Below, piece after piece: positions 4,422 to 21,883 of a DNA stretch of 36,048 bases. The notes under the pieces are model-generated. The model had not been told where the DNA came from. It did no database searches and saw nothing but the letters and a program-made list of their open reading frames with translations. The DNA is from a bacterium (GTDB lineage Bacteria > SZUA-182 > DTGQ01 > JAFGSM01), in NCBI GenBank assembly GCA_049472355.1, contig JBLIRP010000034.1:1-36048 (forward strand). Reading direction: 5' to 3'. The translations under genes were made by a program, and so were the position numbers. The first letter of the stretch is position 1; every line of letters starts with the position of its first letter.

Positions 4422-5183
4422 TTAGTTGTTCAGGCTGAACATCAATGCCGCCTTTCTGTTCCGCAGGGATTGACGCAGCTTGTTGAGCCCCTCGTTGTGG
4501 TGGGTGGAGACCGTGGATTCGGCCAGCCCCAGCATTTGCCCCACCTCTTTCATCGTATAATCATCCCAGTAATAGAGGGCAAGAACCTGGCGCTGCTTTT
4601 CGGGCAGATCTCCCATCGCCTGTTCGATGATCGCCTTGAGCTCGTGCATGGTGAGATCCTCGATCATCCGCTTGTCCGAGTCGTCCGAAAGAAGGTTGAG
4701 GAAGCTGCACCCGTCCTCGGCATTCCCCATCATTTCGTCGATATCCTCGATGTGGACCAGGGTGGCTCCGTGGACCTGATTCTTTATCTCATAGAACTGC
4801 TCCAGTCCCATGTGAAGGTGCGAGGCCACCTCCTCGTCGCTGATCGCCCTTCCGTATCGTTGCTCCAGCCCCAGGATGGTTTGTTCCACCATCTTTGCCT
4901 TGTTCCTGACCGACCGGGACACGAAATCCATCCCCCGCAATTCATCCATGATCGCGCCCCGTATGCGGAACTTGGCGTAATTGCTGAACCGCTTCTGCTT
5001 GGATGGATCGTATTTTTGGGCGGCATCGATGAGCCCCATGATTCCCGCCTCCATCAGATCGTTCATATCAATGGATGCTGGGAGATAGTCGAGGATATTC
5101 GCGGCGATATTCTTTACCAGAAAGATGTGGTTCAGTATCAAATCCTTTTGTTCTTCCGTTTCAATTTGATGCATTTTTTTCAC
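4422..5183 (-). CDS. fliA: RNA polymerase sigma factor, FliA/WhiG (sigma28) family
   Basis: DLMEAGIMGLIDAAQKYDPS, FSNYAKFRIRGAIMDELR.MDFVSRSVR; region 4 LYYWDDYTMKEVGQMLGLAESTVS. Confidence 0.92.
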   Translation of the reverse strand: MKKMHQIETEEQKDLILNHIFLVKNIAANILDYLPASIDMNDLMEAGIMGLIDAAQKYDPSKQKRFSNYAKFRIRGAIMDELRGMDFVSRSVRNKAKMVEQTILGLEQRYGRAISDEEVASHLHMGLEQFYEIKNQVHGATLVHIEDIDEMMGNAEDGCSFLNLLSDDSDKRMIEDLTMHELKAIIEQAMGDLPEKQRQVLALYYWDDYTMKEVGQMLGLAESTVSTHHNEGLNKLRQSLRNRKAALMFSLNN

Positions 5184-5246
5184 CTTTCTCTGTCCTTTCT
5201 TGTTCCCCCTCGAAGGCGAGGCCCCGAGGGTGTTAGCAATGTTTCC

Positions 5247-6557
5247 TCAATAGGTATGTTCAATCGTTGCCTTTTTCTCGCGCGATAGGGACCTTTGGGT
5301 GAAATCCGCGGACGGCTTGCTTACCGCTGCGGGTGCATCCCCCGCAACAAGGGACTGCGGCAGGATGATGGTAAAGGTCGACCCCAGACCGGGCTCGCTT
5401 TCCAGCCAGATATCACCGCCATAGGGTCTCAAAAGCTCAAGGCAGGAGTGCAAACCGAGACCGTACCCGACACGCTGGGACTTTACCGCATCGCCGGTGG
5501 AGGCCTTTGTGGTGAAGAATGGTTCGAACACCTTTTCCTTGAGGTGCTCGGGGATCCCAATTCCGGTATCCTTCACGCTGATGTAAATCTGTTCCTTATC
5601 CTGGTAGGTGGTGATGGCGATCTCTTTTACCTGGGAGTCATACATCGCCTCGATGGCGTTCTTGACCAGATTGTCCAAGACCTGACTCAAATGGCTGTAC
5701 ACCATGTTTATTGTTTTCAGCGAGGGATCCAGGTCGTAGTTCTTTTTCACCTGATGCTTGAAGTAGAGGTCGGATTTAAAGAATTCCATCTCCTGGATGA
5801 TCATGTTGTTGATATCCAGCGAGCTCGGGGTGACCTCTCTCTCCATACTCGATTTTTTGAGGATGTTCTCCACGATTTGAAAGATCTTCTGGGAATTCTG
5901 GTAAATCGCTGTTACGTCCTGACTGAAACGCCCGAGGACCTCCAGGATCTCCTTGCGAAAGGGGTCCTGGGCCGAGTCCTCCTCGTGCATCCTCTCGATC
6001 TGATTCATCTCCGCCTGCAGCAGCTCCGCCCGCCCCGCTATGACCGTGAGTGGATTGAGTATATTGTGCACGACCCCCTGCACGGAGTTGCCGATAATGG
6101 CCTGCTTCTCCGCATGAATGAGTCGCTGCGTCCGCACCTCGACCGTTCGTTCCAGGTTTTTCCGGTGCAGCAGGTCCTTCAGCCTGAGGCTGATCATCTC
6201 TTTTGCACGACTGAGCGAAAGATAGAGAAGCTCCGGCTCGATCGGCTTGAGCAGAAAGTCACAGGCCTGATACTTGATCGCCTTGATGGCGATGTCGATG
6301 CGGTCGCAGCCGGTCATAACGATCATCTCCGCCACGCTGTTTCTCTTTTTGGCCTCCTTGAGTATCTCCAGCCCATCGATATCCGGAAGCAGGATATCAA
6401 CGAGCCCGAGATAGAATTTCTTCCTCTGTATCTGGGCCATCGCCTCCTGCCCCGTCAGGCACGTGACCGGTCGATACCCCTTTTTCTTCAGAATGATTCC
6501 CAGAAGTCTCAGGACCTCGGGTTCATCATCGACGACCAGGACCCTATCTATACGCAT
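5247..6557 (-). CDS. Hybrid REC-histidine kinase (REC-HisKA-HATPase), cytoplasmic
   Basis: VLVVDDE..LVDILLPDIDG..FLLKP receiver; H-box VVHNILNPL; N-box NLVKNA; DTGIGI, FEPFFTTK, GYGLGL. Confidence 0.93.
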   Translation of the reverse strand: MRIDRVLVVDDEPEVLRLLGIILKKKGYRPVTCLTGQEAMAQIQRKKFYLGLVDILLPDIDGLEILKEAKKRNSVAEMIVMTGCDRIDIAIKAIKYQACDFLLKPIEPELLYLSLSRAKEMISLRLKDLLHRKNLERTVEVRTQRLIHAEKQAIIGNSVQGVVHNILNPLTVIAGRAELLQAEMNQIERMHEEDSAQDPFRKEILEVLGRFSQDVTAIYQNSQKIFQIVENILKKSSMEREVTPSSLDINNMIIQEMEFFKSDLYFKHQVKKNYDLDPSLKTINMVYSHLSQVLDNLVKNAIEAMYDSQVKEIAITTYQDKEQIYISVKDTGIGIPEHLKEKVFEPFFTTKASTGDAVKSQRVGYGLGLHSCLELLRPYGGDIWLESEPGLGSTFTIILPQSLVAGDAPAAVSKPSADFTQRSLSREKKATIEHTY

Positions 6558-7384
6558 CGCACCTTTCCTCCCGGCTGCACATGAAATATGCGGCCTTTAC
6601 TCGGGTAAAGGTTGTCGTCCAATCGGGCAAAACTGTAGGGAGGCCATGGACCGCTGAGCTGGGGAATGTAGCCGTCCTCTCCCTGGATCTCCTCGAGCGC
6701 CTGTTTCACCTCTGTAATCTGCTCATCCGAGAGGAGGCAGGATATATTCAGCAGCATTCTCCTGTCCGCATCCCCCCCGGTGATCTGTTCGATCTGAAAA
6801 TCATTCAGATAGGGACGGACGCGATCCAGAAGGGTACGGGATGCCTGAACGATCTCCTTGGCAATGCACCGCTGCAACAGGCTCCGCTGCTTGTCCTTGA
6901 AGGCGCATGCAGCCTCGCCGCCGGCGCCGGCGATCATTTTCTCCATGACCCGCACCTGGGTATTGTTTCTGGCCACCCTCTTCATGAGCCCGTCATTGGG
7001 CCAGAAGATCTGAATGCCGTATTCCGCCTTGTCCTTGAGGTCTTCAAACCGCTCCTGGATGTGATCGTAGATATCATGTATCCATGCCTTCACCTTTTTG
7101 CCGGCATCTTCCTCATCCTCGCCCCGAATGATGCTCCCGAATCTCAGGGGGATGAGGGTCCCAAAGCATTGCCACGCCTCCTCCACCACCTTGTGATGGA
7201 TCATTGCCCAGTCAATGACCTTGTTTGCATCATCCACCTGAAAGGAATCGACCTCGCAGGGATGCATCAGGGCCATGATCTCCTTGCAGGTGATGCTTTG
7301 CACCGTCCGGTCATCCAGGCCGCTGGCCTTGAATTTGGACGAATTTCCCTTCTTTGTCAGGCAGTAAATATATATGCCGTCCAC
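6548..7384 (-). CDS. GvpL/GvpF family gas vesicle protein
   Basis: GIYIYCL N-terminus, HHKVVEEAW..TLIPLRFG, KAEYGIQIFW, MLLNISCL, LSGPWPPYSF. Confidence 0.9.
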   Translation of the reverse strand: MDGIYIYCLTKKGNSSKFKASGLDDRTVQSITCKEIMALMHPCEVDSFQVDDANKVIDWAMIHHKVVEEAWQCFGTLIPLRFGSIIRGEDEEDAGKKVKAWIHDIYDHIQERFEDLKDKAEYGIQIFWPNDGLMKRVARNNTQVRVMEKMIAGAGGEAACAFKDKQRSLLQRCIAKEIVQASRTLLDRVRPYLNDFQIEQITGGDADRRMLLNISCLLSDEQITEVKQALEEIQGEDGYIPQLSGPWPPYSFARLDDNLYPSKGRIFHVQPGGKVRCV

Positions 7385-7397
7385 AAAACCTCCTTGA

Positions 7398-8042
7398 TCA
7401 TGTACACGTTGAGTTCAGTACGTGCTCCCTCGATGTCCGTCCCAGAGTCTGATGCAGATCCAGCGTGAAAAAGCTGTGGGGAGGGAGCGGCTCGGACAAC
7501 CGCAGATCGATCCTGTCGCCTAACCGCTTACCCAACTCCTCCTTGAGCGTGGTGAATGTCTCCTGCTCCTCAGGTGACATTAAAATAGAGAGGTGAAAGC
7601 AAATGACCTGATTGATCGGTTCGTGAACCTTGAATTCATACCCCTTGTTTTCAAGCGCCTCAAAGATGTTGTGCTCGATGTTTCCTACCTCTTCCTTCCA
7701 GATCCCCATGAGATCGTATTCCGCCTTGTCCTGCGCATATGAAAGGAGTGACCTGAATCGTTGGGCACCCTCTTTGAGAATGGTGGAGATCTCCCTTTTC
7801 GTCTTTGCTATTGTTCCGAATCGAACGGGCAGGATGTTCCGATTGATTCCCGCCCTCTCCAGGATTATCTGATAGTTGAACAGGGCATCCACCCGTTCGA
7901 ACGGCATAAGCTGGCCGATATTGGAAACAGTTGAGTGGATGACTGCCGCTGCGAGGTTTTCATAGGTCACAAGGACATAGTCCCCCAACTGAGCCCCGAT
8001 GTCCCCTTCCGGTGACCACAAAATGGCCACGATCTGCCACAT
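7398..8042 (-). CDS. GvpL/GvpF family protein (shorter, divergent)
   Basis: YENLAAAV, ILPVRFGTIA, KAEYDLMGIW, PLPPHSF; AAGGAGG RBS; central helical segment shorter than in the neighbour. Confidence 0.8.
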   Translation of the reverse strand: MWQIVAILWSPEGDIGAQLGDYVLVTYENLAAAVIHSTVSNIGQLMPFERVDALFNYQIILERAGINRNILPVRFGTIAKTKREISTILKEGAQRFRSLLSYAQDKAEYDLMGIWKEEVGNIEHNIFEALENKGYEFKVHEPINQVICFHLSILMSPEEQETFTTLKEELGKRLGDRIDLRLSEPLPPHSFFTLDLHQTLGRTSREHVLNSTCT

Positions 8043-8206
8043 TGGATGCCCCCCTCCTTATTTAAGGTTTTCATGCAGTGAATCGATGCCGGTCGAACAA
8101 GAGCTTGTTCACAAATTGATCCTTACAAGAGCGAATCTCACAATAACAACGTATTATGAATCAACTTTATAAGGAGACTTGATCACAGGATTTTGTTCAA
8201 AAATAA

Positions 8207-8223
8207 AGCAAGCCCGGTGCCAA
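8207..8223 (-). promoter_or_regulatory. sigma54 (-24/-12) promoter
   Basis: Minus strand reads TTGGCAC-CGGGC-TTGCT, an exact match to TGGCAC-N5-TTGC(A/T), about 165 bp upstream of the 8042 start. Confidence 0.9.
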
Positions 8224-8309
8224 TCCATGGCATGGGGGGAATGAGTTTTGTATCTTATTGTAAATAAAGGAAATTAATCGATTGGCGTGAAGGGGATAGG
8301 GGGTAAACA

Positions 8310-8402
8310 TTGGGTATTTGGTTCCATATATATGGAATTTATGCCCTATCTATGGAACTGAATGGATAAAATTTACCGGAAAGTATGGAAAGCAATCCTA
8401 TA
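8310..8402. promoter_or_regulatory. Candidate upstream activator sequences (TATGGAA / TTCCATA repeats)
   Basis: Palindrome TTCCATATATATGGAA (8322-8337); TATGGAA also at 8351 and 8384; about 90-180 bp upstream of the sigma54 box, with an AT-rich tract between. Confidence 0.55.
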
Positions 8403-8477
8403 ATTGAACATATACTGACGATTATTGAACAGGTGTATTCTTGTGCGCAGCCCTCTTGACCGCATAATATCAACCGA

Positions 8478-10394
8478 TTATTCTAAACCGTACTTACGCA
8501 GCTTGTTGTAGAGGGTCTTATAGTCGATACCCAGCGCCCGGGATGCCTTGGCCTTATCCCAGCGGGTGTGCCGGAGGGTCAGCATGATCAGCCTTTGCTC
8601 CATCTTCTCCCGGAACCGGGCAACGATCTCCTTGAACTTCCCGCATTGATCATGGGTGGATACCTCCTCCAGCCAGTCAGGCAACCGGGCATGATCGACG
8701 TCATCCTCGTTGATGGAGAACTCGCGCATCTTTGCCAAAAGGGTCTTATAGTCCACGCCGAGTGCCCGGGCGGTCTTTGATTTGTTCCCCCGGTACTCCC
8801 GAAGGGCTTGCACAATCAGGGCGCGCTCCAGTTCACTCCCTATCCTTTTGTTAAGATCCTTCAGGGTGGTCCCGGGATTGAGAAATGCCTCCACCCCTGC
8901 GCACACCGGATCATCCGTATCCGTTTTGGGGGTGATGGCGTATTCCTCCATCTTCTTACCCAGCGTCCTCTGGCTTATATCCAGCCAGTCGCTGGCCTGC
9001 CGTATCTGATAATCCGATTCAATGAGCACCCGCTCGATATAGTACCTGTTTGCCTGAGACAGCACCTCCTGTTCCATCCTCTTGAGCGTGGACCGGGAGG
9101 GTATGAACAGAGAGAGCCGCACCCCCTTCCCCGTAAGATGCCTGTTCAACAACTGAGGGGGAAGGTGCTCCGGAAGGATCTTCTCCTCGGCCATTACCGA
9201 GGCCCCATTGATGACGTTTTTGAGCTGCCTGACATTTCCCGGCCATGTATAGTGCGCCAGGATATCCATGGCCTCGGAAGAGATCTCCTGGACCGGCACC
9301 CCCCGCTCCTGTGCCGCCTCCTGTGAAAAATGCTGCGCCAGTAATTTGACGTCGTTGAGCCGTTCCCGCAATGGGGGGAGATGGATGTGGAACTGATTGA
9401 TGCGAAAGAAGAGGTCCTCCCGAAAATGCCCCTTGTCCCGTGCCGCCTCCAGGTCGGTATTGGTCGCGGAGATGAGCCGCAAATTCAGATCGATGTAATC
9501 CTTCCCTCCCAGCGGGATGATCCTTCGTTCCTGCATTACCCTGAGGAGCTTGCTCTGGAAGTCCGATCTCAGGTTTCCCAGCTCATCGAGGAACAGGGTG
9601 CCGCCCTGGGCCATCTCAAACAACCCTTTCTGCTTGTGATCGGCCCCGGTAAAGGCCCCCCGCTCGAAGCCGAAGACCTGGCTCTCGAACAGGGTCTCGG
9701 GGATGGTGGCGCAATCCATCGGGGTAAAGGGGCCATCCTTCCTCAGGCTGTTGTAATGTATTGCCTGGGCGACCAGTTCCTTTCCCGTGCCGTTCTCGCC
9801 GGTAATGAGCACCGAGAGATCGCTCGGCGCAACCTTGCGCAGCTTGTCAAACAGGTGGAACATCTGCGGGTCTGCGGTGACGATCGAACTGAAATTGAAT
9901 CGCTCCTGGAGTCGTTTCCTGAGCATGACCACCTCTTCCTTGAGCCTTTTGTCCTCTAAGGCCCTCATAATCGAAAACTTTATCTCCTCGAGGTGGTAGG
10001 GCTTGGTAAAATAGTCGTATGCCCCGGTCTTAATGGCCTGCACCGCGTCCTTGATGCTCTCGTGGCCGGTGAGGATGAATACTATGATCTCCGGATACGA
10101 CTCCCGGATGCGCTTCAGTGCCTCCAATCCGTTCATCCCCGGCATCTTCACATCCAGGAATACGATGTGGGGGCCGTAATCGGGAATCGTTCTCAAGGCC
10201 TCCATCCCCCTCTCCGCGACCCTCACTATATGCCCCTCCTTCTCCATGAAGTTGATGAGGGGCCACAGTATCTCCGGCTGGTCGTCGACCAGGAGGACAC
10301 GCGCGGCATCATAATGGTGAGATGGATATGAAGGATCACGAGATGCGGGGGCATCAGACTCTCGGTTATGCATCCCCATGCTTACGGGATTCAT
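8478..10394 (-). CDS. sigma54-dependent response regulator (NtrC family: REC-AAA+-three Fis-type HTH modules)
   Basis: REC VLLVDD..FLDVKMPG; GENGTGKE, GAFTGA, LFLDE, FREDLFFRI, WPGNVRQL; three C-terminal HTH-like repeats. Confidence 0.95.
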   Translation of the reverse strand: MNPVSMGMHNRESDAPASRDPSYPSHHYDAARVLLVDDQPEILWPLINFMEKEGHIVRVAERGMEALRTIPDYGPHIVFLDVKMPGMNGLEALKRIRESYPEIIVFILTGHESIKDAVQAIKTGAYDYFTKPYHLEEIKFSIMRALEDKRLKEEVVMLRKRLQERFNFSSIVTADPQMFHLFDKLRKVAPSDLSVLITGENGTGKELVAQAIHYNSLRKDGPFTPMDCATIPETLFESQVFGFERGAFTGADHKQKGLFEMAQGGTLFLDELGNLRSDFQSKLLRVMQERRIIPLGGKDYIDLNLRLISATNTDLEAARDKGHFREDLFFRINQFHIHLPPLRERLNDVKLLAQHFSQEAAQERGVPVQEISSEAMDILAHYTWPGNVRQLKNVINGASVMAEEKILPEHLPPQLLNRHLTGKGVRLSLFIPSRSTLKRMEQEVLSQANRYYIERVLIESDYQIRQASDWLDISQRTLGKKMEEYAITPKTDTDDPVCAGVEAFLNPGTTLKDLNKRIGSELERALIVQALREYRGNKSKTARALGVDYKTLLAKMREFSINEDDVDHARLPDWLEEVSTHDQCGKFKEIVARFREKMEQRLIMLTLRHTRWDKAKASRALGIDYKTLYNKLRKYGLE

Positions 10395-10397
10395 TGC

Positions 10398-12473
10398 TCA
10401 CTCCCTTTCCTTTGGTTGCATGCGATAGGGTAACTGCATGTATACGCGGGTCCCCTTGCCTTCCTCACTCTCTATCCAAATTCTTCCAAAGTGATCCTCG
10501 ATGATCCGTTTGGACACGGTCAATCCCAGCCCGATTCCTTTGCTCTTTTTTGAAAAGAAGGGCTCGAAGACCCGCTCGATCTCATCCGGTTTGATGCCGG
10601 ATCCGGTATCCTGAAACAAAATCACCACCCTCTGCTGAATCGGCTCATTCCGTGTGCATATGGTAAGGATTCCACCATGCGACATGGCCTGTATCGCATT
10701 CACCGTCAGATTGATGCATACCTGGCCGATGTACTCTTCGTCACACACGATCGGCGGCAGATTCGCGTCGAGTGCAAGCCGCACCTCGATATGCCTCCTG
10801 CGGCACCTTCCACCGAGCAGGGACGCCATTCTGCGCACGCATGCATTGATATCGGTCGTTGCAAAGGACAGGGAGCGCGGACGGGCAAAATTCATCAATT
10901 CATTGATGATCGAGTCGATCAATTCACAGCCTTCGGACATCACCCCCAGATGCTCCTGCAGCGGGTTATTCTCCCCCTCCATAATGGAATGCAGGTACTG
11001 AAGGGAGCCGGAGATGGCGGAGAGGGGGTTTCGAACCTCATGGGCCACACCTGAGGCGAGTTGGAGCATGGCCTCCATTCGTTCCCTGCGCGTGCGATCC
11101 TGTGCCATCGACCTGGTTCTGGTCACCTCCTCGATGATGAGAAGGGCATCCGGTTCCCCCGCCGCCTGGCCATAGAAGGGGATGAGCCTGATCTCCAATG
11201 TCCTTCCCTGGTGCAGGGCTCCCCCCATGGCCGCATCTATGGGGAGGGCGGTTTCACCCCGCATGCCTCGCTCGATGATCGGTTGCACGCAGGAAAGGAG
11301 ATCGGGGGGCAGACAGTCGGCGAGGGGGTGATTGACGACCTCTTCGTATGCACGGCCGAAGAGATCCAGGAACGACCGGTTGGCGAAGAGGGTATTCCCA
11401 TCCCTGCCGATGAGGGCGATCCCGGCAGGGATACCGTCGAGCACTCCCTGCTGGTACCGGGACATGGATTGCAAAGACTCGGCTGGAGGATGTTCAAGGT
11501 TTCCCCCGGGCGCCGGGAGGCCTCTGAATCTGGCGCGCAGCCTGTCGGGGTCGGCAAGATCCAGGGCGATTCCCAGCACCCCGGTAAAACCACGGTATGC
11601 ATCGTGCATCGGGGAGGTGCTGATGATCATGGGCCGCTCCTTGCCGGCGGAATCCCTCAGGGAGATCTCCCACTCCTGCGGTCTTTCCATAGCCATGGAC
11701 CGATTCAGGGTCACCGCATCCGCCTTTTCAAAGAGCAACGAAAAGAAGGAACTGCCGATCAGGGTATCCCGGGGGTAGCCCAATGACTCGATCTTGGGAT
11801 TCACGTAGGTGAACCTGCCGTCGCCGTCGAGGGTAAAAATGATGTCGTTCGCCTTTTCCAGGATGTTGTTCAGGTAGTAATCCGCCTCTGCGGCCTTTGC
11901 AACGAGGGCGCCTTCGCGTTCCTTCAGTTGCTCGCAGGTCTGTTTGAGCTGTTTCAGCAGTCGGCGATTTTCCAGTTCCAGCCGCTGCCGTTCGAGACAG
12001 TTTTTCACCACATTGTGGAGGGTGGAGAGTTTGATCGGCTTTGTCAGATAGTCATAGGCGCCCGCCTTGAAGGTCTTGCGCACGGAATCAAGGCTCTCAT
12101 ACCCGGTGATGATAATCACTGCGGTATCCGGGCTCAACGCAGCGATTTTCTGCTGAAGCTCGGTGCCGTCCGCCTCTTCCAGGTGGAGATCAAGGATGAC
12201 CAGGTGAAGGAACTGATTTTTGACGATTTCAAGGGCCTGGGATGGGTCCGCACTGGTAAAGACCAGGAATCCGATGGATCTGAGAAATTCCTTGATCGAT
12301 TCCCTGATCCCCTCCTCGTCGTCCACCACCAGTATCCGCGAGGGTGTCGCTTCCCAGGGATCAGGGAGATCCTGGCTTATCTTGGGGATGTGGTCGATTC
12401 TGGGTCGCTTCCGGGCCTGACTCACCCTTCCTCCCGTATACATGAATGAAGGCCGCTCCATTGTCCATACCAC
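10398..12473 (-). CDS. Hybrid sensor kinase REC-PAS-PAS-HisKA-HATPase (start uncertain)
   Basis: ILVVDDE receiver; PAS motifs IIFTLDGDGRFTYVNP and IALIGRDGNTLFANRSF; H-box VAHEVRNPL; DTGSGI, GIGLGL; 3 bp from the activator gene. Confidence 0.93.
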   Translation of the reverse strand: MVWTMERPSFMYTGGRVSQARKRPRIDHIPKISQDLPDPWEATPSRILVVDDEEGIRESIKEFLRSIGFLVFTSADPSQALEIVKNQFLHLVILDLHLEEADGTELQQKIAALSPDTAVIIITGYESLDSVRKTFKAGAYDYLTKPIKLSTLHNVVKNCLERQRLELENRRLLKQLKQTCEQLKEREGALVAKAAEADYYLNNILEKANDIIFTLDGDGRFTYVNPKIESLGYPRDTLIGSSFFSLLFEKADAVTLNRSMAMERPQEWEISLRDSAGKERPMIISTSPMHDAYRGFTGVLGIALDLADPDRLRARFRGLPAPGGNLEHPPAESLQSMSRYQQGVLDGIPAGIALIGRDGNTLFANRSFLDLFGRAYEEVVNHPLADCLPPDLLSCVQPIIERGMRGETALPIDAAMGGALHQGRTLEIRLIPFYGQAAGEPDALLIIEEVTRTRSMAQDRTRRERMEAMLQLASGVAHEVRNPLSAISGSLQYLHSIMEGENNPLQEHLGVMSEGCELIDSIINELMNFARPRSLSFATTDINACVRRMASLLGGRCRRRHIEVRLALDANLPPIVCDEEYIGQVCINLTVNAIQAMSHGGILTICTRNEPIQQRVVILFQDTGSGIKPDEIERVFEPFFSKKSKGIGLGLTVSKRIIEDHFGRIWIESEEGKGTRVYMQLPYRMQPKERE

Positions 12474-12582
12474 TGATTACGCCGTATCTTAGTCGAACTT
12501 CCATGATCCGTCAAGCATTCGGCTCATATTATGGAACAATCGCCTTTCTCCATTCTGCATGTGGAAAATATTCCATGATTTC

Positions 12583-12609
12583 TTATCGGCCTTTATCCGG
12601 CGTTTCCCG
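12583..12609 (-). promoter_or_regulatory. Possible sigma28-type promoter for the kinase/activator operon (-10 only)
   Basis: Minus-strand GCCGATAA (12590-12583) is a perfect -10 box; the -35 box is poor at canonical spacing. Confidence 0.3.
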
Positions 12610-12731
12610 GAGGGCGTCCTCTCCCTTCATCCATGCGGTATTCAGAAGATATACCGGATACCCCACAGGGCCGATCCTCCTTCTGACCGTGCCGCGACCG
12701 TGGAAACATCCCCCAAAGGTGACAAACCATC

Positions 12732-12758
12732 GAAGATTAGGCCCTCTTCTACCGATAA
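12732..12758 (+). promoter_or_regulatory. Possible sigma28-type promoter
   Basis: GAAGATTA-N11-ACCGATAA against consensus TAAAGTTT-N11-GCCGATAA, upstream of the first receiver gene. Confidence 0.4.
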
Positions 12759-12881
12759 AAAGGTAACGGCATAGCTGTTGAATCGACAACAAGGGTGGGG
12801 CAAGGCACCCCTTCCGGTCAGGACGGATCACCAGCGTTGGGGTGTAAAACGCATAACCATCTATAAAAAGAGGTTTTGAAC

Positions 12882-13247
12882 ATGTTCAACATACTGGCTG
12901 TCGATGATGATTGCATGATCTGCGATGTCATATCCGATTTTCTCAAGGGAAAGGGGTATGGTGTTCGAACAGCCCGATCGGGCGAAGAGGCCCTGAATTT
13001 GATCTCCATGGAAAAACCCGATCTGGTGCTCCTGGACATGATTATGCCCGGTATGGGAGGAGAGGCGACCCTGAAACAGATCAAGGACCTGTACATCGAC
13101 CTTCCCGTGATAATGGTGACGGTTATGACCGATGAAAAAAAGGCCCTCAACCTCCTGGCGGAAGGGGCATCTGATTACATTACAAAGCCGATCGATTTCA
13201 AGTACCTGGAAAAGAATCTCTCGGTGTGGGAATCCCTCAAGGCATAG
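12882..13247 (+). CDS. Single-domain response regulator (CheY-like receiver)
   Basis: ILAVDDD, LVLLDMIMPGMGG, VIMVT, YITKP; ATG at 12882 aligns with the paralog start (ORF track starts at 12876). Confidence 0.93.
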   Translation: MFNILAVDDDCMICDVISDFLKGKGYGVRTARSGEEALNLISMEKPDLVLLDMIMPGMGGEATLKQIKDLYIDLPVIMVTVMTDEKKALNLLAEGASDYITKPIDFKYLEKNLSVWESLKA

Positions 13248-13364
13248 GATTCACCCCCGGTGGTGTTGCGTGAGTAAAACCAGCCTCATCCCTGCCAACC
13301 GATTCCACACCCCTTCCGGACTCTTGCCATTTACTGCTTCTTTGGATTCCCCCTCCAGGGGGGT

Positions 13365-13391
13365 GAAAGGCGGCCCGCCTTTGGCCGATAA
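13365..13391 (+). promoter_or_regulatory. sigma28-type promoter
   Basis: GAAAGGCG-N11-GCCGATAA: perfect -10 box with (T/G)AAAG at canonical spacing, 80 bp before the second receiver gene. Confidence 0.55.
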
Positions 13392-13471
13392 ACATAATAG
13401 GAACACAACGGTATTCCATGGGGTAAAACGGCAGGTTACGAGGGGGAAACTCAGGAAAAGAGGGGGAGTCG

Positions 13472-13843
13472 ATGTTTACCGTGTTGACCGTTGACGATGA
13501 TTGCATGATCTGCGACACCATATCCCTTTACCTCACCCAGAAGGGATACAGCGTCACGTCCGCCGCCTCGGGGGAGGAGGCGTTGGAGGCCATCGACCGG
13601 GAAAGACCCAACCTTGTTCTCCTGGATGTGGTGATGCCCGGCATGGGCGGCGAGGAGACGCTCAGGGCGATAAAGAGCCGCTACACGGACCTCACCGTCA
13701 TCATGATCACCGTCATATCCGACACCATGATGGCGTTGAAACTGCTCCAGGAAGGCGCCTCAGCCTTGATCAGCAAGCCGATCAATCTGGATTTGCTGGA
13801 AAGAAACATCTCTGTTTGGAAGATGATCAAGGATTGCCTGTAA
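13472..13843 (+). CDS. Single-domain response regulator, tandem paralog of 12882-13247
   Basis: VLTVDDD, LVLLDVVMPGMGG, VIMIT, LISKP; colinear with the upstream receiver. Confidence 0.93.
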   Translation: MFTVLTVDDDCMICDTISLYLTQKGYSVTSAASGEEALEAIDRERPNLVLLDVVMPGMGGEETLRAIKSRYTDLTVIMITVISDTMMALKLLQEGASALISKPINLDLLERNISVWKMIKDCL

Positions 13844-14024: not shown

Positions 14025-14558
14025 TCAAATCCCCCATATCTGCAAGGCGTTCAGAAGCGTTCCGATAGGACTCACTGCGTACGGATACGTGAGATATTCC
14101 CTATTGGCCACCGGCACCCACTGATTGCCCCATGAAAAGGGGGTCGGCGGCAGGAATGCCCAGTTGCCGGTCAAGGTAATGGGTATGGGCCTGTTTAAGA
14201 TCGGATCAAACAGTTGATTCGGGGGCCAGCATCCGAATCCAAAGAGTTGATCCCAGTAAGCAAGCCCTTGGGTGCTGTTGAACAGGAGCCATGGATAGCC
14301 CATGGACGGATCCCATGTGAGTGCGGGCTGGACAGGCAGAACCGTGCTCGGGGTAAGGCTCGTCACAAGGGGTGAGCCGATTCCGGTTTTAAAACTGGTG
14401 CTGTTGAGAACCGGAGACCAGAGAGGCCACAGCGTGTTGTATGGAGGAATCGCCGCCCAGTATTGCGCGTTGATTGATGGCGAAACAATGAAGACGGACA
14501 CTATAAGGATAACAGGGACGATAATCGCCCATTTAGGTATTCCTTTTGTTCCAAACAT
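14025..14558 (-). CDS. Secreted Pro/Trp-rich hypothetical protein
   Basis: Signal peptide (MFGTKG..hydrophobic..SINA|Q); mature part AQYWAAIPPYNTLWPLWSPVL..PVQPALTWDP..PWLLFN; start chosen at ATG 14558. Confidence 0.7.
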   Translation of the reverse strand: MFGTKGIPKWAIIVPVILIVSVFIVSPSINAQYWAAIPPYNTLWPLWSPVLNSTSFKTGIGSPLVTSLTPSTVLPVQPALTWDPSMGYPWLLFNSTQGLAYWDQLFGFGCWPPNQLFDPILNRPIPITLTGNWAFLPPTPFSWGNQWVPVANREYLTYPYAVSPIGTLLNALQIWGI

Positions 14559-15145
14559 ACATGGATCCCTTCGATGATAAAAATTGTGTGGATTCGTAAT
14601 CGTGCTCCATGCCTGAAAGATCGTCATCGTTTCCCTTCTGAGCATCACCTCCTTTCCATAGGACAGATTATGACAGATGGTATGGAATAGGTTCCCACCT
14701 CCTTTCATTCCCGGATTGCCGTCTCACGAGAGCGTGAGGAATAGGATAAATCCGGTGGACAAGGGTACGGTTATGACCGGTCCTGCGGAAAAGGCATCTC
14801 CTGACACTGCAACCCATAGCTGCATATCACGCATTGCCCCTCCCATTATCCCGCCGGGTGCGTAGGAGAAGCAAGGCGGAATGGGGGTCCTTCAACACTC
14901 GGGGGAATAGGGGATAAGATATTCCGGATGACCGATTCTGCCTGCACTTTTCTCCTGAAAAGGCCGTTCGCAAAAAGAAACGCAAAGATCGAAATACGGG
15001 GCAATCCTGTTTTTATAGCCTGTTTATATAAAGACGAACATCCGGGAGCACTTCTTATTGGAGGATGCAGGGCGTCTCTCCACCTCCCCAGGCTACCCCT
15101 CCATTCCCGTGCCCTCGGCCATCGAGGTGACCGGCGGGGAGTCGT

Positions 15146-18431: not shown

Positions 18432-18742
18432 GGCATCCTTTGCCTCGCGGCTGCGCTTCTCCACCAGGGAGGGCCAGAGGATGCTCGTGTAGGGATGCCT
18501 GGCTGCTTTGCGATGCGCTCAGCAAGACCCATCTCCACGATCCTCCTAAGGTACATGACCGCCACCTTGTGGCTCATCAGTTCAACAAACCGAAGATCGT
18601 GGGATATGAAGAGGTAGGAGAGCCTATGTGTCTCTGGAGGTCCTTAAGAAGGTTCACCACCTGGGCCTAAACGGAGGCATCGAGGGCGCTGGTGATCTCG
18701 TCCGCGACGATGAACCTGGCACCCACCGCGAGTGCCCTGGCG
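18432..18742 (-). pseudogene. Diverged partial copy of the oppF-like ATPase gene (22732-23044)
   Basis: Aligns base by base with 22732-23044 (ARALAVGARFIVADE..SHKVAVMYL..EKRSREA); has a stop codon and single-base deletions. Confidence 0.92.
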
Positions 18743-18743
18743 T

Positions 18744-18975
18744 CCGTGAGTGTGCCGGTGCAATTTTTTTTTATTGTGACATAGACTATTGTCTGATCTT
18801 TTTCTGCTTGTTTTTTTGCACGATTGATACTCCAATCATTGAATTCTTTATCTCCTTCCAGAAGCAGGGCGATATGGGCATTGTTGGGAATTTTTTCACA
18901 AAATTCCGGATGTTCTCTCATATATCCATCAAATTCAATTCCAAGAACGCTGCTTCTTCTTTCATAAATGTTCAT
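18744..18975 (-). pseudogene. DUF5647-like small protein, frameshifted and truncated
   Basis: MNIYERR..IEFDGYMREHPEFCEKIPNNAHIAL.LEGDKEFNDWS; extra A in an A9 run near the end, then abuts the oppF fragment. Confidence 0.6.
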
Positions 18976-19044
18976 GGATGTTCTCCTCTTAAAAACTTTT
19001 CTTTGTACAATTCCCAGTTCGAGCAATCGCAGCCTGACTTCAAC
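18964..19044. repeat. ~80-bp diverged direct repeat, copy 2
   Basis: Matches 15327-15406. Confidence 0.9.
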
Positions 19045-19205
19045 TGGTAGGGTGACTGGTGGGGTGACTGGTGGAGTGACTGGTGGGGTAATTGGGAACC
19101 TTGGAGCCCCCCCGTTGGCTCTGACTCTGGCTCTGGCTCCGACTCTGGCTGCGACTCTGGCTGACATCCGACTTCCCCTGTGACTTGCCCTGCGACTTGC
19201 CTGTG
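19043..19205. repeat. Three adjacent 12-bp tandem repeat blocks
   Basis: (ACTGGTGGGGTG)x4 at 19043-19090; GACTCTGGCT-type units at ~19116-19163; (GACTTGCCCTGY)x3 at 19170-19205. On the minus strand they encode TPPV, QPES and GQVT repeats. Confidence 0.9.
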
Positions 19206-19215
19206 TTGCACTGTG

Positions 19216-19465
19216 TGGGCCGACCTGTGACTTCGCCTCGATGGCAACCAGAAGAGTGCCATCACGGACAATAAGAAGATCCCATTCTTTTGTTACATCC
19301 ATCCATCTGTGCCCCGCCCGTTACGGCACTGCGCAGCCCCTGGTCTGCTTTCCCGGTCTGCTTCTGCTTGTCCTTCTGCCCCTGCCGCGTCTTCCAGTAA
19401 TGGGCTACAGCCTGACCAGATCGTTCAGCCAGACTTCGAATGATATCGTCAAGGTTCATAGGCAT
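19216..19465 (-). pseudogene. PaeR7I/XhoI-family type II restriction endonuclease remnant
   Basis: AVAHYWKTR..ADQGLRSAVTGGAQMDG, then out of frame TKEWDLLIVRDG.LLVAIEAKSQVGP; internal deletion and 3' truncation; begins just after the attC R' box. Confidence 0.8.
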
Positions 19466-19499
19466 AGTGTATCAGATTTCTCTTCTGTTTATTATTACT

Positions 19500-19595
19500 G
19501 GCCAACGACCAGGCATCACCAGCTTTGCGCCCTTAAAACCGAGCACGCAATTTCACGGCGGCGGGTAGCAACGTCTGCTGCATGTAAAGTTGGCC
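19500..19595 (-). other. Integron attC site
   Basis: GGCCAAC..CATGCAGCAGACGTTGC..GCAAAGCTGGTGATG..GTTGGCC; complementary R boxes and bulged bases; 96 bp; 10 bp after the HNH stop. Confidence 0.88.
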
Positions 19596-19605
19596 TTTCA
19601 TTAAT

Positions 19606-20295
19606 TTATTGAATTTTATCTCGTTTTTCAATATTGTGCCGAGCACATAATAATTGGATGTTTTCAGCAACGAGAGAAGATCCGCCTTTAGAATATGGAA
19701 TAATATGATCAAAATGTAGATTATCATTACTACCACAGATAACACAACGACCTTTATCTCTTTTCCAAACTTGAAGTTTTACAGAGGCAGGAATTACTCG
19801 GCTATGCTCTAAATCATGAGTTTCGTATGAATATGGCATTTGGTCTTCAACTAGTTCCAGTTTAAATTTAAATACATTACGAGCATTACTGATTTCAAGA
19901 CAAGAGTCGATTAATTTAAATAAACCATTATATACCCAAATACCAGCATGTATCTTTTCATATACTTTGACAATCTCTGGATCAGCTATGCCATTTTTAT
20001 ACTTTTGTGCAGCATCAAAAAACAAGCCATTTTGAGTAAAAGAACCTCCCGGATTTCGCATAGATTGGTCAATCAATTAAGGGGCATTAATGCCCTTTGT
20101 TTTTGGTATATCATGTCCTTCATAAATTAATACATTGCCATTATTTTCAATTCTGTCAGCATATGGTGCATTAGTTCTCAAGCTCATCAAGATTACACTG
20201 TAATTGCCACCAAGACGAAAATTCATTTCTCGTTGAAGATTTACACTTTCTTCGCGGCACATATCTAAATATGATATGACATCTCCTGTTTTCAT
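19606..20295 (-). pseudogene. HNH endonuclease with SRA-like N-terminal domain, interrupted by an in-frame TAA
   Basis: ORFs 20077-20295 and 19606-20076 share a frame (NAP*LIDQ); PYADR..LIYEGHD, GIWVYNGLF, CVICG..LHFDHIIPYSKGG..NIQLLCARHN. Confidence 0.8.
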
Positions 20296-20330
20296 CTAGT
20301 TCGGTTAAGTTAATTTAGGTTCAGTGGTAG

Positions 20331-20389
20331 TCACCTGCGCCGAACGAGCGCCAGCGAGTGAGTCGTCAGGTGTAGCGCCTTTGTTAGGT
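20331..20389 (-). other. Integron attC site lacking R' (truncated)
   Basis: ACCTAAC-AAAGGCGCTACACCTGAC..GCAGGTGA; no GTT box follows. Confidence 0.7.
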
Positions 20390-20426
20390 CAGTTAATGTT
20401 TCCTTACCTTTGATTAATTCCCTTCT

Positions 20427-21008
20427 CTATTTCTTAATTTTGGTTTCCAAATTGAATTTTTGAAGCAACCAGTCCAGTACGGCTTCCTGATCCTGAATAG
20501 TCGCTCGACGGATTTGAGCAAGCAGGTGAATTCGATCCGGTTTTGGTAGTGATGTATTCTGCAATCCCTCATTGCAGTTCGTGCAAACCGCTCGCAAATT
20601 ATACGGCGTATCTTCGCCGCCTTTCGACTTGTCTATTATATGGCCTATCGTCAACCGTACAGTTCGATTTCCTCCGAACGGGTCGGGGTCGCCAGCCGCG
20701 ACTCCACACATTTGGCAGGTGTATCCATTTCTTTCAAGTACCCAAGCACGAGTCTCCTTGGAAATGCCGCGTGTGAAGGCGGGCACTCGCTCAATTGTCT
20801 CCATAACATATTGATTTGGTTTTAAGCTCGCACGGTCCTTGTGGGAAAGGATTTGATAGCCGTCCTCATTGCGAAGCTCGCGAACCCTTCGTGCCCACTC
20901 TACGGCCCCTCCGCTAGCCTTTTGAATATCCTTTGACTCAAGCACTTTGCCAATGTTCTGGAGAAAAAACTCAAGAATTAACTGCTTTGATCCGGGCTTT
21001 CTTGACAT
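20427..21008 (-). CDS. HNH endonuclease, probable restriction enzyme
   Basis: wHTH-like WARRVRELR; CQMCG..LTIGHIIDKSKGG..NLRAVCTNCNEG; overlaps the MTase 3' end. Confidence 0.85.
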   Translation of the reverse strand: MSRKPGSKQLILEFFLQNIGKVLESKDIQKASGGAVEWARRVRELRNEDGYQILSHKDRASLKPNQYVMETIERVPAFTRGISKETRAWVLERNGYTCQMCGVAAGDPDPFGGNRTVRLTIGHIIDKSKGGEDTPYNLRAVCTNCNEGLQNTSLPKPDRIHLLAQIRRATIQDQEAVLDWLLQKFNLETKIKK

Positions 21009-21883
21009 GGCGTGTACTCTCCTTGCCCATCAGGGTGTACAGATTCCAGGTTTAAAAATAATTGCAGTTGTCTCGTACGTTCCTTGCACATCTGGGCATA
21101 TACCGGATTCAACTCAATCAGAATTGCCATGCGACCTAGCTCGTTTGCCACCAGTCCAGTCGTTCCAGAACCGCCGAATGGGTCTAGAATCACATCGCCC
21201 TCACGCGATCCAAGCAGAATACATCGTCGCGCCAACTCACGCGGGAATGAGGCTGGGTGTCCATTGCCGCTTGGATCGGGACCGAGTATCCAGTAGTTAC
21301 GGAGATTCGCGCCGCTCGCCTCCCTAACACCATTTGCGTTATAAAAGTAATTTGGGGATTTAGCAAACAGAAAAACTTCTTCCGTTGCTCTCGTGGGCCT
21401 ATTCTTCACACTTTCAGGCATCGCTGTTTTTTTTATCCATGTTATTTTGGATCTCAACACCCACCCATCCTCCTGCAAAGCAAAGGCGATGCGCCAGGGT
21501 AGCCCTATTAAATCCCTATCCTTGAGTCCCCAGCAATTAGGAACTTTGCAGTTGCGTTTTTGGATTAGTTTTTTTGTGTTCCCGACCATGGCATTCGGGC
21601 CGCAATTACCCGTTCCGCCGTTTCTTGCATAGCCGTCGCCAACATTAAGCCACACCGTCCCATCCTTACGCAGAACACGACGAACCTCACGAAATATTGC
21701 TATGAGGTTTTCGACGTAAAGTTCTGGCGATGGCTCGGCTCCGATCTGTGCAGGATGATCGTAGTCACGTAGTCCCCAATATGGCGGAGACGTTACACAG
21801 CATTGTATGGATTCAGCCGCCAGCGTTGGTAAAATCGTGAGGCTATCACCGATCAAAACCTGCAAATAATTCATGTGAGCCAT
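20978..21883 (-). CDS. Site-specific DNA methyltransferase, beta class (probably N4-cytosine, M.Cfr9I/XmaI-like)
   Basis: TSPPYWGLRDY before ILDPFGGSGTT; DLIGLPWRIAFALQEDGW, AMPESVKNRPTR, HPASFP. Confidence 0.92.
   Translation of the reverse strand: MAHMNYLQVLIGDSLTILPTLAAESIQCCVTSPPYWGLRDYDHPAQIGAEPSPELYVENLIAIFREVRRVLRKDGTVWLNVGDGYARNGGTGNCGPNAMVGNTKKLIQKRNCKVPNCWGLKDRDLIGLPWRIAFALQEDGWVLRSKITWIKKTAMPESVKNRPTRATEEVFLFAKSPNYFYNANGVREASGANLRNYWILGPDPSGNGHPASFPRELARRCILLGSREGDVILDPFGGSGTTGLVANELGRMAILIELNPVYAQMCKERTRQLQLFLNLESVHPDGQGEYTPCQESPDQSS

Follow-up and report, generated by a model that had tools for sequence, protein, structure and literature searches.

A conserved bacterial gene cluster with the layout of a sigma54-to-sigma28 cascade retains two proteins of the gas-vesicle GvpF/L family

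A 36,048-nucleotide (nt) stretch of bacterial DNA (contig JBLIRP010000034.1 of assembly GCA_049472355.1, designated as the window; its genome is designated as G000) contains, at positions 4422–13843, a regulatory cluster in which two genes of the gas-vesicle gvpF/gvpL family stand among genes for two histidine kinases, an NtrC-type sigma54 activator, a FliA-type sigma28 factor and two lone receivers. To our knowledge, GvpF and GvpL are known solely as gas-vesicle assembly factors. The cluster is conserved in the family to which G000 belongs, and we interpret it as a likely sigma54-to-sigma28 cascade that has kept two former assembly proteins of gas vesicles, which likely act on a new client as a pair of chaperones or adaptors; our probability for this reading is about 0.55. 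The module is real, conserved and built from known parts, and the possibility that the GvpF/L fold has acquired a new function can be tested. Its features, in positions of the window, are as follows.

4422–5183, minus strand: fliA, a FliA/WhiG (sigma28) factor (TIGR02479 FliA_WhiG, 206.2 bits against a cut-off of 189.6)
5247–6557, minus strand: soluble REC-HisKA-HATPase kinase (the REC kinase), with D54, H164 and the N and G boxes intact
6548–7384, minus strand: gvpL-type gene, 278 amino acids, full GvpL/F domain (PF06386, E 1.5e-51)
7398–8042, minus strand: gvpF*, 214 amino acids, a GvpF-DnaJ derivative (by tree, alignment, AlphaFold2 and Foldseek)
8208–8222, minus strand: sigma54 -24/-12 promoter box, 0 mismatches to the consensus
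8323–8431, minus strand: conserved upstream block with a TGTTCA direct repeat and TTCCAT/ATGGA half-sites (invariant columns, five genomes)
8478–10394, minus strand: NtrC-type sigma54 activator, REC-AAA+ with GAFTGA and three Fis-type helix-turn-helix (HTH) motifs (HTH_8)
10398–12473, minus strand: soluble REC-PAS-PAS-HisKA-HATPase kinase (the PAS kinase), without a hydrophobic stretch; its true start is probably the ATG near 12443
12731–12758, plus strand: sigma28-type box (CGAAG, 16-nt spacer, ACCGATAA) before receiver 1
12882–13247, plus strand: single-domain receiver 1
13364–13391, plus strand: sigma28-type box before receiver 2, also present in relative G001
13472–13843, plus strand: single-domain receiver 2, a tandem duplicate of receiver 1 (61% identical)

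Pfam and NCBIfam searches confirmed, each at its position, all genes that a sequence-only reading of this DNA had named, and domain searches likewise bore out its REC-PAS-PAS kinase adjoining the NtrC activator. Both kinases and the activator keep their catalytic motifs and have no membrane parts. The activator has the make-up of an enhancer-binding protein, with REC, AAA+ carrying GAFTGA, and HTH, and is accompanied by a target box and by a sigma54 gene (found in 4/5 genomes tested); the tripling of its Fis-type HTH adds to the earlier description. The only FliA-family gene of G000 is the one in this cluster. The 3′ end of gvpL and the start of the REC kinase gene overlap by 10 nt. Promoter and terminator scans remained at chance level, and a hairpin between the REC kinase gene and fliA has no T-run and is absent from the terminator calls.

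The genomes compared are metagenome-assembled genomes of 63–97% completeness (87.5% for G000), so that absence of a gene means here that it was not found; they are related to one another and are not independent samples. Gene content, gene order, selection and motif conservation were observed directly. GvpL/F was present in 8 of the 41 genomes searched, including four of the five family relatives. In all four relatives with a gvp match, which span two genera, the order is the same: PAS kinase, activator, gvpF*, gvpL, REC kinase and fliA, with receiver 1 divergent. In the fifth relative, G003 (63% complete), a contig ends within the cluster and carries receiver 1 with the first part of the PAS kinase gene. 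The arrangement, on whose conservation in relatives the sequence-only reading had staked itself, is thus conserved in 4/5 family relatives. Across the four relatives FliA is 79–98% identical, and receiver 1 is 71–98% identical in relatives. More variable are the genes beyond fliA, which differ in G004, the PAS kinase of G005, which has one PAS only, and receiver 2, found only in G000 and G001 of the five loci examined.

Both gvp genes are under purifying selection at levels like that of rpoA. Between G000 and G001, the ratio of nonsynonymous to synonymous substitution rates (dN/dS) was 0.19 for gvpF*, 0.11 for gvpL, 0.14 for the REC kinase, 0.05 for fliA and 0.13 for rpoA; between G002 and G004 it was 0.06 for gvpF* and 0.05 for gvpL, with dS near saturation. 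The gvp genes have open frames and 59–97% identity among relatives, and in the deeper, synonymous-saturated pairs the proteins are still 59–75% identical. The intact frames and the ratios of 0.19 and 0.11 speak strongly against the concern that these genes are decayed leftovers. One of six metatranscriptomes contained 12% of the sequence words, and among the three of six runs compared, short contigs of run X1 cover parts of fliA, gvpL and receiver 1; such contigs reveal neither strand, starts nor co-transcription and may reflect DNA carry-over, and they were not used as support.

No shell gene was found to accompany the pair. The gvpA family and gvpK were each found in 0/6 family genomes, including those that are 97% and 93% complete, and the gvpA searches detected their target in the positive controls, G014 and the outside carriers. 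In G000, a custom profile of 11 GvpA-family proteins run over six frames gave a best E of 7.7, queries with gvpA, G, K, O and ArsA retrieved no orthologue but only weak AAA/ATPase matches, and eight gvpG queries, run against G000 alone, had no match. As a baseline, eight GvpF/L carriers outside the class were found among 401 genomes, and gvpA was present in 8/8. The nearest outside relatives of gvpL came from 80 metagenome loci, of which 38 were shorter than 5 kb and were excluded; among the 42 kept, all of at least 5 kb, gvpA-family or gvpK genes occur in 40 and fliA in none. Because no shell gene was found in the family, a buoyancy role, which had been among the suggestions of the sequence-only reading, is unlikely.

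Flagellar genes are likewise missing. Flagellin was found in 0/6 family genomes against flagellin-family genes in 7/7 other genomes of the order, and flgM and flhA in 0/3 family genomes tested against 2/2 controls. No other gvp gene and no flagellin, flhA or flgM gene was found across the whole of G000, beyond the window for which the sequence-only reading had noted such an absence. PilT was present in 5/5 family genomes and chemoreceptors in 3/3. At G000:C71:13500-15300 (L209), an HD-GYP gene is followed by a cold-shock gene; the locus looks like a scar of flagellin loss, because the same genes adjoin flagellin in flagellated relatives.

The two GvpF/L proteins match PF06386 with 176 and 82 bits (cut-off 23.6). 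The 278-residue GvpL misses the stricter NCBIfam GvpL equivalog cut-off (143 against 200 bits); profile matches connect it with the structures 6L5D and 4QSG, and the tree places it in the clade of gvpL genes that come after gvpK. For the 214-residue gvpF*, the tree indicates membership of the GvpF-DnaJ clade; it was inferred by a quick search, and both proteins are on long branches. Among the next-best matches of gvpF*, 110/148 have an HPD motif after residue 250. About 47 residues are missing from the centre of gvpF* and about 74 from its end, the latter corresponding to the J domain, and the same clean deletion is seen in all five genomes. Its AlphaFold2 model, built on a 108-row alignment, reached a predicted local distance difference test score (pLDDT) of 89 (40 with five sequences), and the best Foldseek matches of the model were again 6L5D and 4QSG (E ~1.5e-8). 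In prediction, therefore, gvpF* is a trimmed GvpF-DnaJ that retains the GvpF fold. The conserved GvpL tail, PGGKVRCV, is explained by the DNA that encodes it, because the GGAGG site and start codon of the REC kinase gene spell it; the gvpL/kinase overlap, once taken as a hint of binding, is the ribosome-binding site and start codon of the kinase gene. A co-fold of GvpF*, GvpL and the REC kinase gave a score of 0.00 for the kinase, which is neither support nor counter-evidence.

Within the window alone, neither promoter motif exceeds chance. The sigma54 consensus has a single match, without mismatch, at 8222-8208(-), and 2.35 matches with at most one mismatch would be expected by chance; sigma28-like matches number 22 against 20 expected. 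The boxes of the locus are credible because they are conserved among relatives. The perfect sigma54 box that the sequence-only reading had placed at the head of gvp-gvp-REC kinase-fliA occurs in the same place in 5/5 genomes with the operon. The sigma28-like promoters it had proposed for the lone receivers likewise recur among relatives, with the box before receiver 1 in 6/6 family genomes and that before receiver 2 also in G001. In the box of receiver 1, the 16-nt spacer is longer by one than in the E. coli consensus applied to the window, and the -35 and -10 letters are identical to those of fliC and flgM promoters of flagellated relatives. The repeat block that lies 100–210 nt above the sigma54 box has invariant columns in 5/5 genomes; genome-wide, each block pattern has two matches, and the locus copy alone has a sigma54 box below it. 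We predict from this conservation that the block is an enhancer for the triple-HTH activator. Intergenic sigma54 boxes in G000 number 40 at the right spacing against 1–9 at seven other spacings. Of these approximately 40 boxes, one precedes a type IV pilin gene and many precede genes for exported low-complexity proteins rich in Tyr, Gly and Pro. Sigma28 feedback on the PAS kinase gene was considered and rejected: the candidate site upstream of it scored 9.9 in G000 and G001 but 1.8–6.2 in four others.

Candidate targets of FliA were sought with pattern and matrix scans and then scored with a sigma28 matrix trained solely on receiver, flgM and fliC promoters (threshold 11.8 bits); outside G000, 40 of 62 pattern sites were retrieved. 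The scans pointed to other receivers, to REC-kinase and CheW-chemoreceptor genes, to HD-GYP, to a Rieske-cytochrome b-multiheme operon and to one of two F-type ATP synthase operons. Upstream of the latter (the C83 type), the matrix gave 11.8–20.7 bits in 12/12 genomes of the order, at a constant spacer and with at most 1/100 shuffles as high, and the other ATP synthase operon reached 11.8 bits in 0/9. Random upstream regions did so in 16/572 cases. The Rieske gene scored 11.9–20.7 bits in 5/5 family genomes and 17.4–18.2 bits in 6/7 others, and that of G009 and three extra paralogues 1.9–10.3 bits (15 of 22 matches scored). The HD-GYP gene, which adjoins flagellin in sister genomes, was boxed in 7/7. 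pilT, divergent from the Rieske operon, has a box in 3/4 genomes and is a weaker lead. The E. coli pattern with a 15-nt spacer has only two intergenic sites. Within the family, the FliA of the window is by gene content the sole candidate reader of these boxes; it is predicted to recognise TAAA-type/GCCGATAA promoters and, although of flagellar type, likely activates genes for an ATP synthase, respiration and signalling. Control of the Tyr/Gly-rich exported proteins by FliA was also considered but dropped, many of these being preceded by sigma54 boxes, not sigma28 boxes.

The two F-type ATP synthase operons of G000, G000:C83:1-5144 (L207) and G000:C61:46000-53400 (L301), encode alpha subunits that are 51% identical. 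The C61 type has a 426-residue a-subunit with two Pfam matches and a 603-residue alpha subunit with an N-terminal extension, and both types are found across the order. At G000:C60:23687-30033 (L217), three tandem Hsp70-family genes have a sigma28-like box upstream, seen in G000.

The ancestry of the regulatory parts can be followed in the sister family. The triple-HTH activator has full-length orthologues, 43–46% identical, in five sister-family genomes, and in three of these five loci an orthologue of the REC kinase (42–43% identical) comes directly after the activator, and neither a gvp gene nor a sigma54 box lies between the two. The same activator-kinase pair and FliA thus run without gvp genes, and the cascade parts therefore need no gvp gene there. 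FliA genes outside the flagellar cluster occur in five sister genomes. In G010, the non-flagellar FliA comes after a REC kinase whose best match is the REC kinase of the window (213 against 114 bits), and a sigma54 box stands above the REC kinase-FliA unit in G010 and G007. The best trees group the FliA of the family with f3's second FliA (93/86 and 82/83; f3 is a family of the order), but long branches call for caution and the alternatives were not rejected (p-values of 0.07 and 0.19 in the approximately unbiased test, p-AU); gene neighbours in G010 and G007 favour the grouping. Ahead of the non-flagellar FliA of G010 (L161:2142-5833) lie a membrane PAS-HisKA protein and a REC-kinase without the ATP-binding G boxes, possibly a pseudokinase pair.

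G007 carries a partial activator whose best match is that of the window (112 against 99 bits), beside a broken gvp cluster. This decayed cluster (L033:7500-12871) contains a broken gvpF-DnaJ and fragments of gvpK and gvpL, with no gvpA found, and is divergent from the partial activator. Its gvpF-DnaJ pieces form a supported subclade with gvpF*, and its gvpL fragment does not group with the gvpL of the window. Activator, kinase and non-flagellar FliA all exist in the sister family, where no gvp genes accompany them. The module therefore resembles a mosaic specific to this lineage, in which an order-wide activator, kinase and FliA have been combined with two survivors of a gas-vesicle cluster, and not a detached Serratia operon.

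That latter origin had been the proposal of the sequence-only reading. In Serratia sp., as in the window, an NtrC-type sigma54 activator and two GvpF-family genes stand beside other regulators. According to the accessible text of the Serratia report, the gvpF2/F3 operon is under a sigma70 promoter and sigma54 drives gvpA1, and GvrB and GvrC are called regulators, their domains unnamed there (PMC4982088). The same text makes the shell operon next door the output and requires F2/F3 for vesicles, whereas here sigma54 would head the gvp genes and the output would be FliA. No shell gene, gvpH or gvpZ-like neighbour is present here. In 5/5 genomes the activator and the gvp genes have a sigma54 box between them, and the Serratia-type arrangement, an activator and gvpF pair co-transcribed from a sigma70 promoter beside a gvpA operon that the activator drives, was not found. 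Descent from the gvrA operon is accordingly not supported, in view of the sister-family orthologues without gvp genes, of these promoter arrangements and of the kinases of three real gvp clusters, for which the kinases of the window are not the best match. Closer to the two proteins are the large gvp clusters of bacteria from anoxic water and sediment (L053-L128, G026), which contain the source clades of both (GvpF-DnaJ, and gvpL after gvpK; 27–33% identical). Unlike the module, they have shell genes and no fliA; a kinase occurs in 5/42 loci and is not one of the window's kinases by best match. A plasmid search returned distant gvpL genes only (23–27% identity in the best 15 of 28 matches). 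The large clusters of L035 and L053-L128 also contain CDC48, ArsA, Hsp20, DnaJ-type and actin-like (Volactin) genes and up to four GvpF/L paralogues.

Conserved order and conserved boxes make a sigma54-to-sigma28 cascade, already proposed by the sequence-only reading, the best interpretation of the locus. Sigma54-then-sigma28 hierarchies are familiar from flagella, and non-flagellar sigma28 factors from Streptomyces (WhiG) and Chlamydia (sigma28). The module resembles the former in the succession of enhancer-binding protein, sigma54 and FliA-family factor and in the sigma28 boxes before receiver, CheW and HD-GYP genes, and the latter in keeping FliA without flagella. It differs in that no flagellar gene or FlgM was found, that the predicted targets include F-type ATP synthase and Rieske-cytochrome b, and that gvp-derived genes lie inside the fliA operon. 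In the proposed sequence of events, the soluble PAS kinase would phosphorylate the triple-HTH activator, which would bind the conserved block above the sigma54 box and give rise to a single gvpF*-gvpL-kinase-fliA transcript. FliA, with no FlgM found to hold it back, would then transcribe a non-flagellar programme of lone receivers, HD-GYP, the Rieske-cytochrome b-multiheme operon and one of the two F-type ATP synthases; as a result, a cell that has type IV pili and no flagella would switch both its energy metabolism and its surface behaviour. We infer phosphotransfer, co-transcription and promoter use throughout, as well as any partner of gvpF*/GvpL, and regard this chain, from PAS kinase through the sigma54 operon to a FliA-dependent energy, cyclic di-GMP and receiver programme, as probable.

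Several observations weigh against this interpretation. In the sister family, the activator-kinase pair and a second FliA do without gvp genes, and no sigma54 box was found above the second fliA in G008, G009 and G011. Across the genome, the sigma28 pattern is modestly enriched (11 intergenic sites at spacer 16 against 3–9 at others), G003 shows no excess, and the targets were first picked from pattern matches in family genomes that are themselves kin. Sigma28 targets are boxed also in flagellated genomes, including G006, in which one flagellar FliA was found; because flagellated members carry the same boxes, the regulon would be older than the module.

What the two proteins do within such a cascade is a separate question. 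Because they are kept intact in a regulatory cluster, in a family without a shell gene found, these assembly proteins have likely been repurposed outside gas vesicles, and they very probably function without them. They share with the GvpF/GvpL assembly factors (PDB 4QSG, 6L5D) the PF06386 family, the predicted two-domain fold and the pairing of one F-type and one L-type copy, which are reported to interact in the accessible parts of the literature (PMC9501494, PMC11445434). In gas-vesicle systems, the same sources describe GvpF as a chaperone and GvpL as a binding platform, and the solved structures, in the available text of the second, leave the mode of action unexplained (PMC11445434). The present pair differs in that no GvpA/J/M/S, GvpK or GvpG client was found, and gvpF* differs from its nearest relatives in lacking the central helical insert and the J domain. 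Tentatively, gvpF* and GvpL may form a heterodimeric holdase that gates a protein of the same transcript, the kinase or FliA; for an action on either of these rather than on an unrelated client, we consider the odds to be somewhat adverse. Still more doubtful is the fuller proposal that the heterodimer, by taking the place of FlgM or by modulating the kinase, is a post-translational gate of the sigma28 factor, which in a flagella-less bacterium would run a switch to the second ATP synthase and respiratory chain.

Alternatively, the cascade may be real and the pair have no signalling role, being co-induced chaperones of a hydrophobic, self-assembling or membrane client such as pilins, ATP synthase membrane subunits or Tyr/Gly-rich exported proteins. 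The role known for the family, binding of hydrophobic GvpA-type proteins as the accessible literature describes it, would fit, as would the descent of gvpF* from a DnaJ fusion, the position of many G000 sigma54 boxes before Tyr/Gly-rich exported proteins and a pilin, and the signalling of the sister family without gvp genes. However, the gvp genes lie between activator and kinase, ahead of fliA, in 5/5 genomes, gvpF* has lost the J domain that would be useful for folding, and no client has been identified; we hold this account to be unlikely, though well within consideration. Highly improbable is the reading of the locus as a normal regulatory operon for gas vesicles, with structural genes that the assemblies lack or that have diverged beyond recognition. 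All genomes are incomplete, one member of the class (G014) has a full gvp cluster and G007 has a broken one beside the same activator, but the searches that returned 0/6 for gvpA and gvpK in the family detect G014 and 8/8 outside carriers, the gvpA, G, K, O and ArsA queries had no orthologue in G000, and the enhancer pattern is paired with a sigma54 box at this locus alone. Nor do we give much credence to the gvp genes as slowly eroding passengers, kept only for promoter spacing and for the kinase ribosome-binding site in their DNA. The shortening of gvpF* by about 47 internal and 74 terminal residues, the long branches, the GvpL score below the NCBIfam cut-off (143 against 200) and a tail that encodes kinase start signals could be read in that way. 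Against this, the frames stay open at 59–97% identity despite synonymous saturation, dN/dS strongly disfavours erosion, the deletion is the same and clean in all five genomes, the predicted fold is confident, and true decay, as in G007, looks different, with stops and fragments.

As a natural GvpF/GvpL pair that selection has kept without shell proteins, the two could help to identify the binding partners of the fold, and gvpF* indicates the regions of GvpF that can be lost. Annotations of gvpL/F call for caution against inferring buoyancy. The sigma28 box before the ATP synthase and the Rieske-cytochrome b operon across the order points to an energy state controlled by sigma28. An open-access literature search returned no report of gvpA-less GvpF/L in a sigma cascade, nor of a sigma28-driven ATP synthase. 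If the proposal of a GvpF*/GvpL gate on such a sigma28 factor holds true, it would give GvpF/L a first role that is unrelated to gas vesicles, together with a sigma28 regulon for bioenergetics that extends over an entire bacterial order.

Two neighbours of the module were also noted in the window. At 14025-14708 (-), next to the module, lies a gene for an exported Pro/aromatic-rich protein with no Pfam family, which among the loci examined is otherwise beside the module in G001 only. Farther on, at 18667-21883 (-), an AT-rich island with a DNA methylase, two HNH nucleases and an XhoI/DUF5647 gene is likely a restriction-modification insert.

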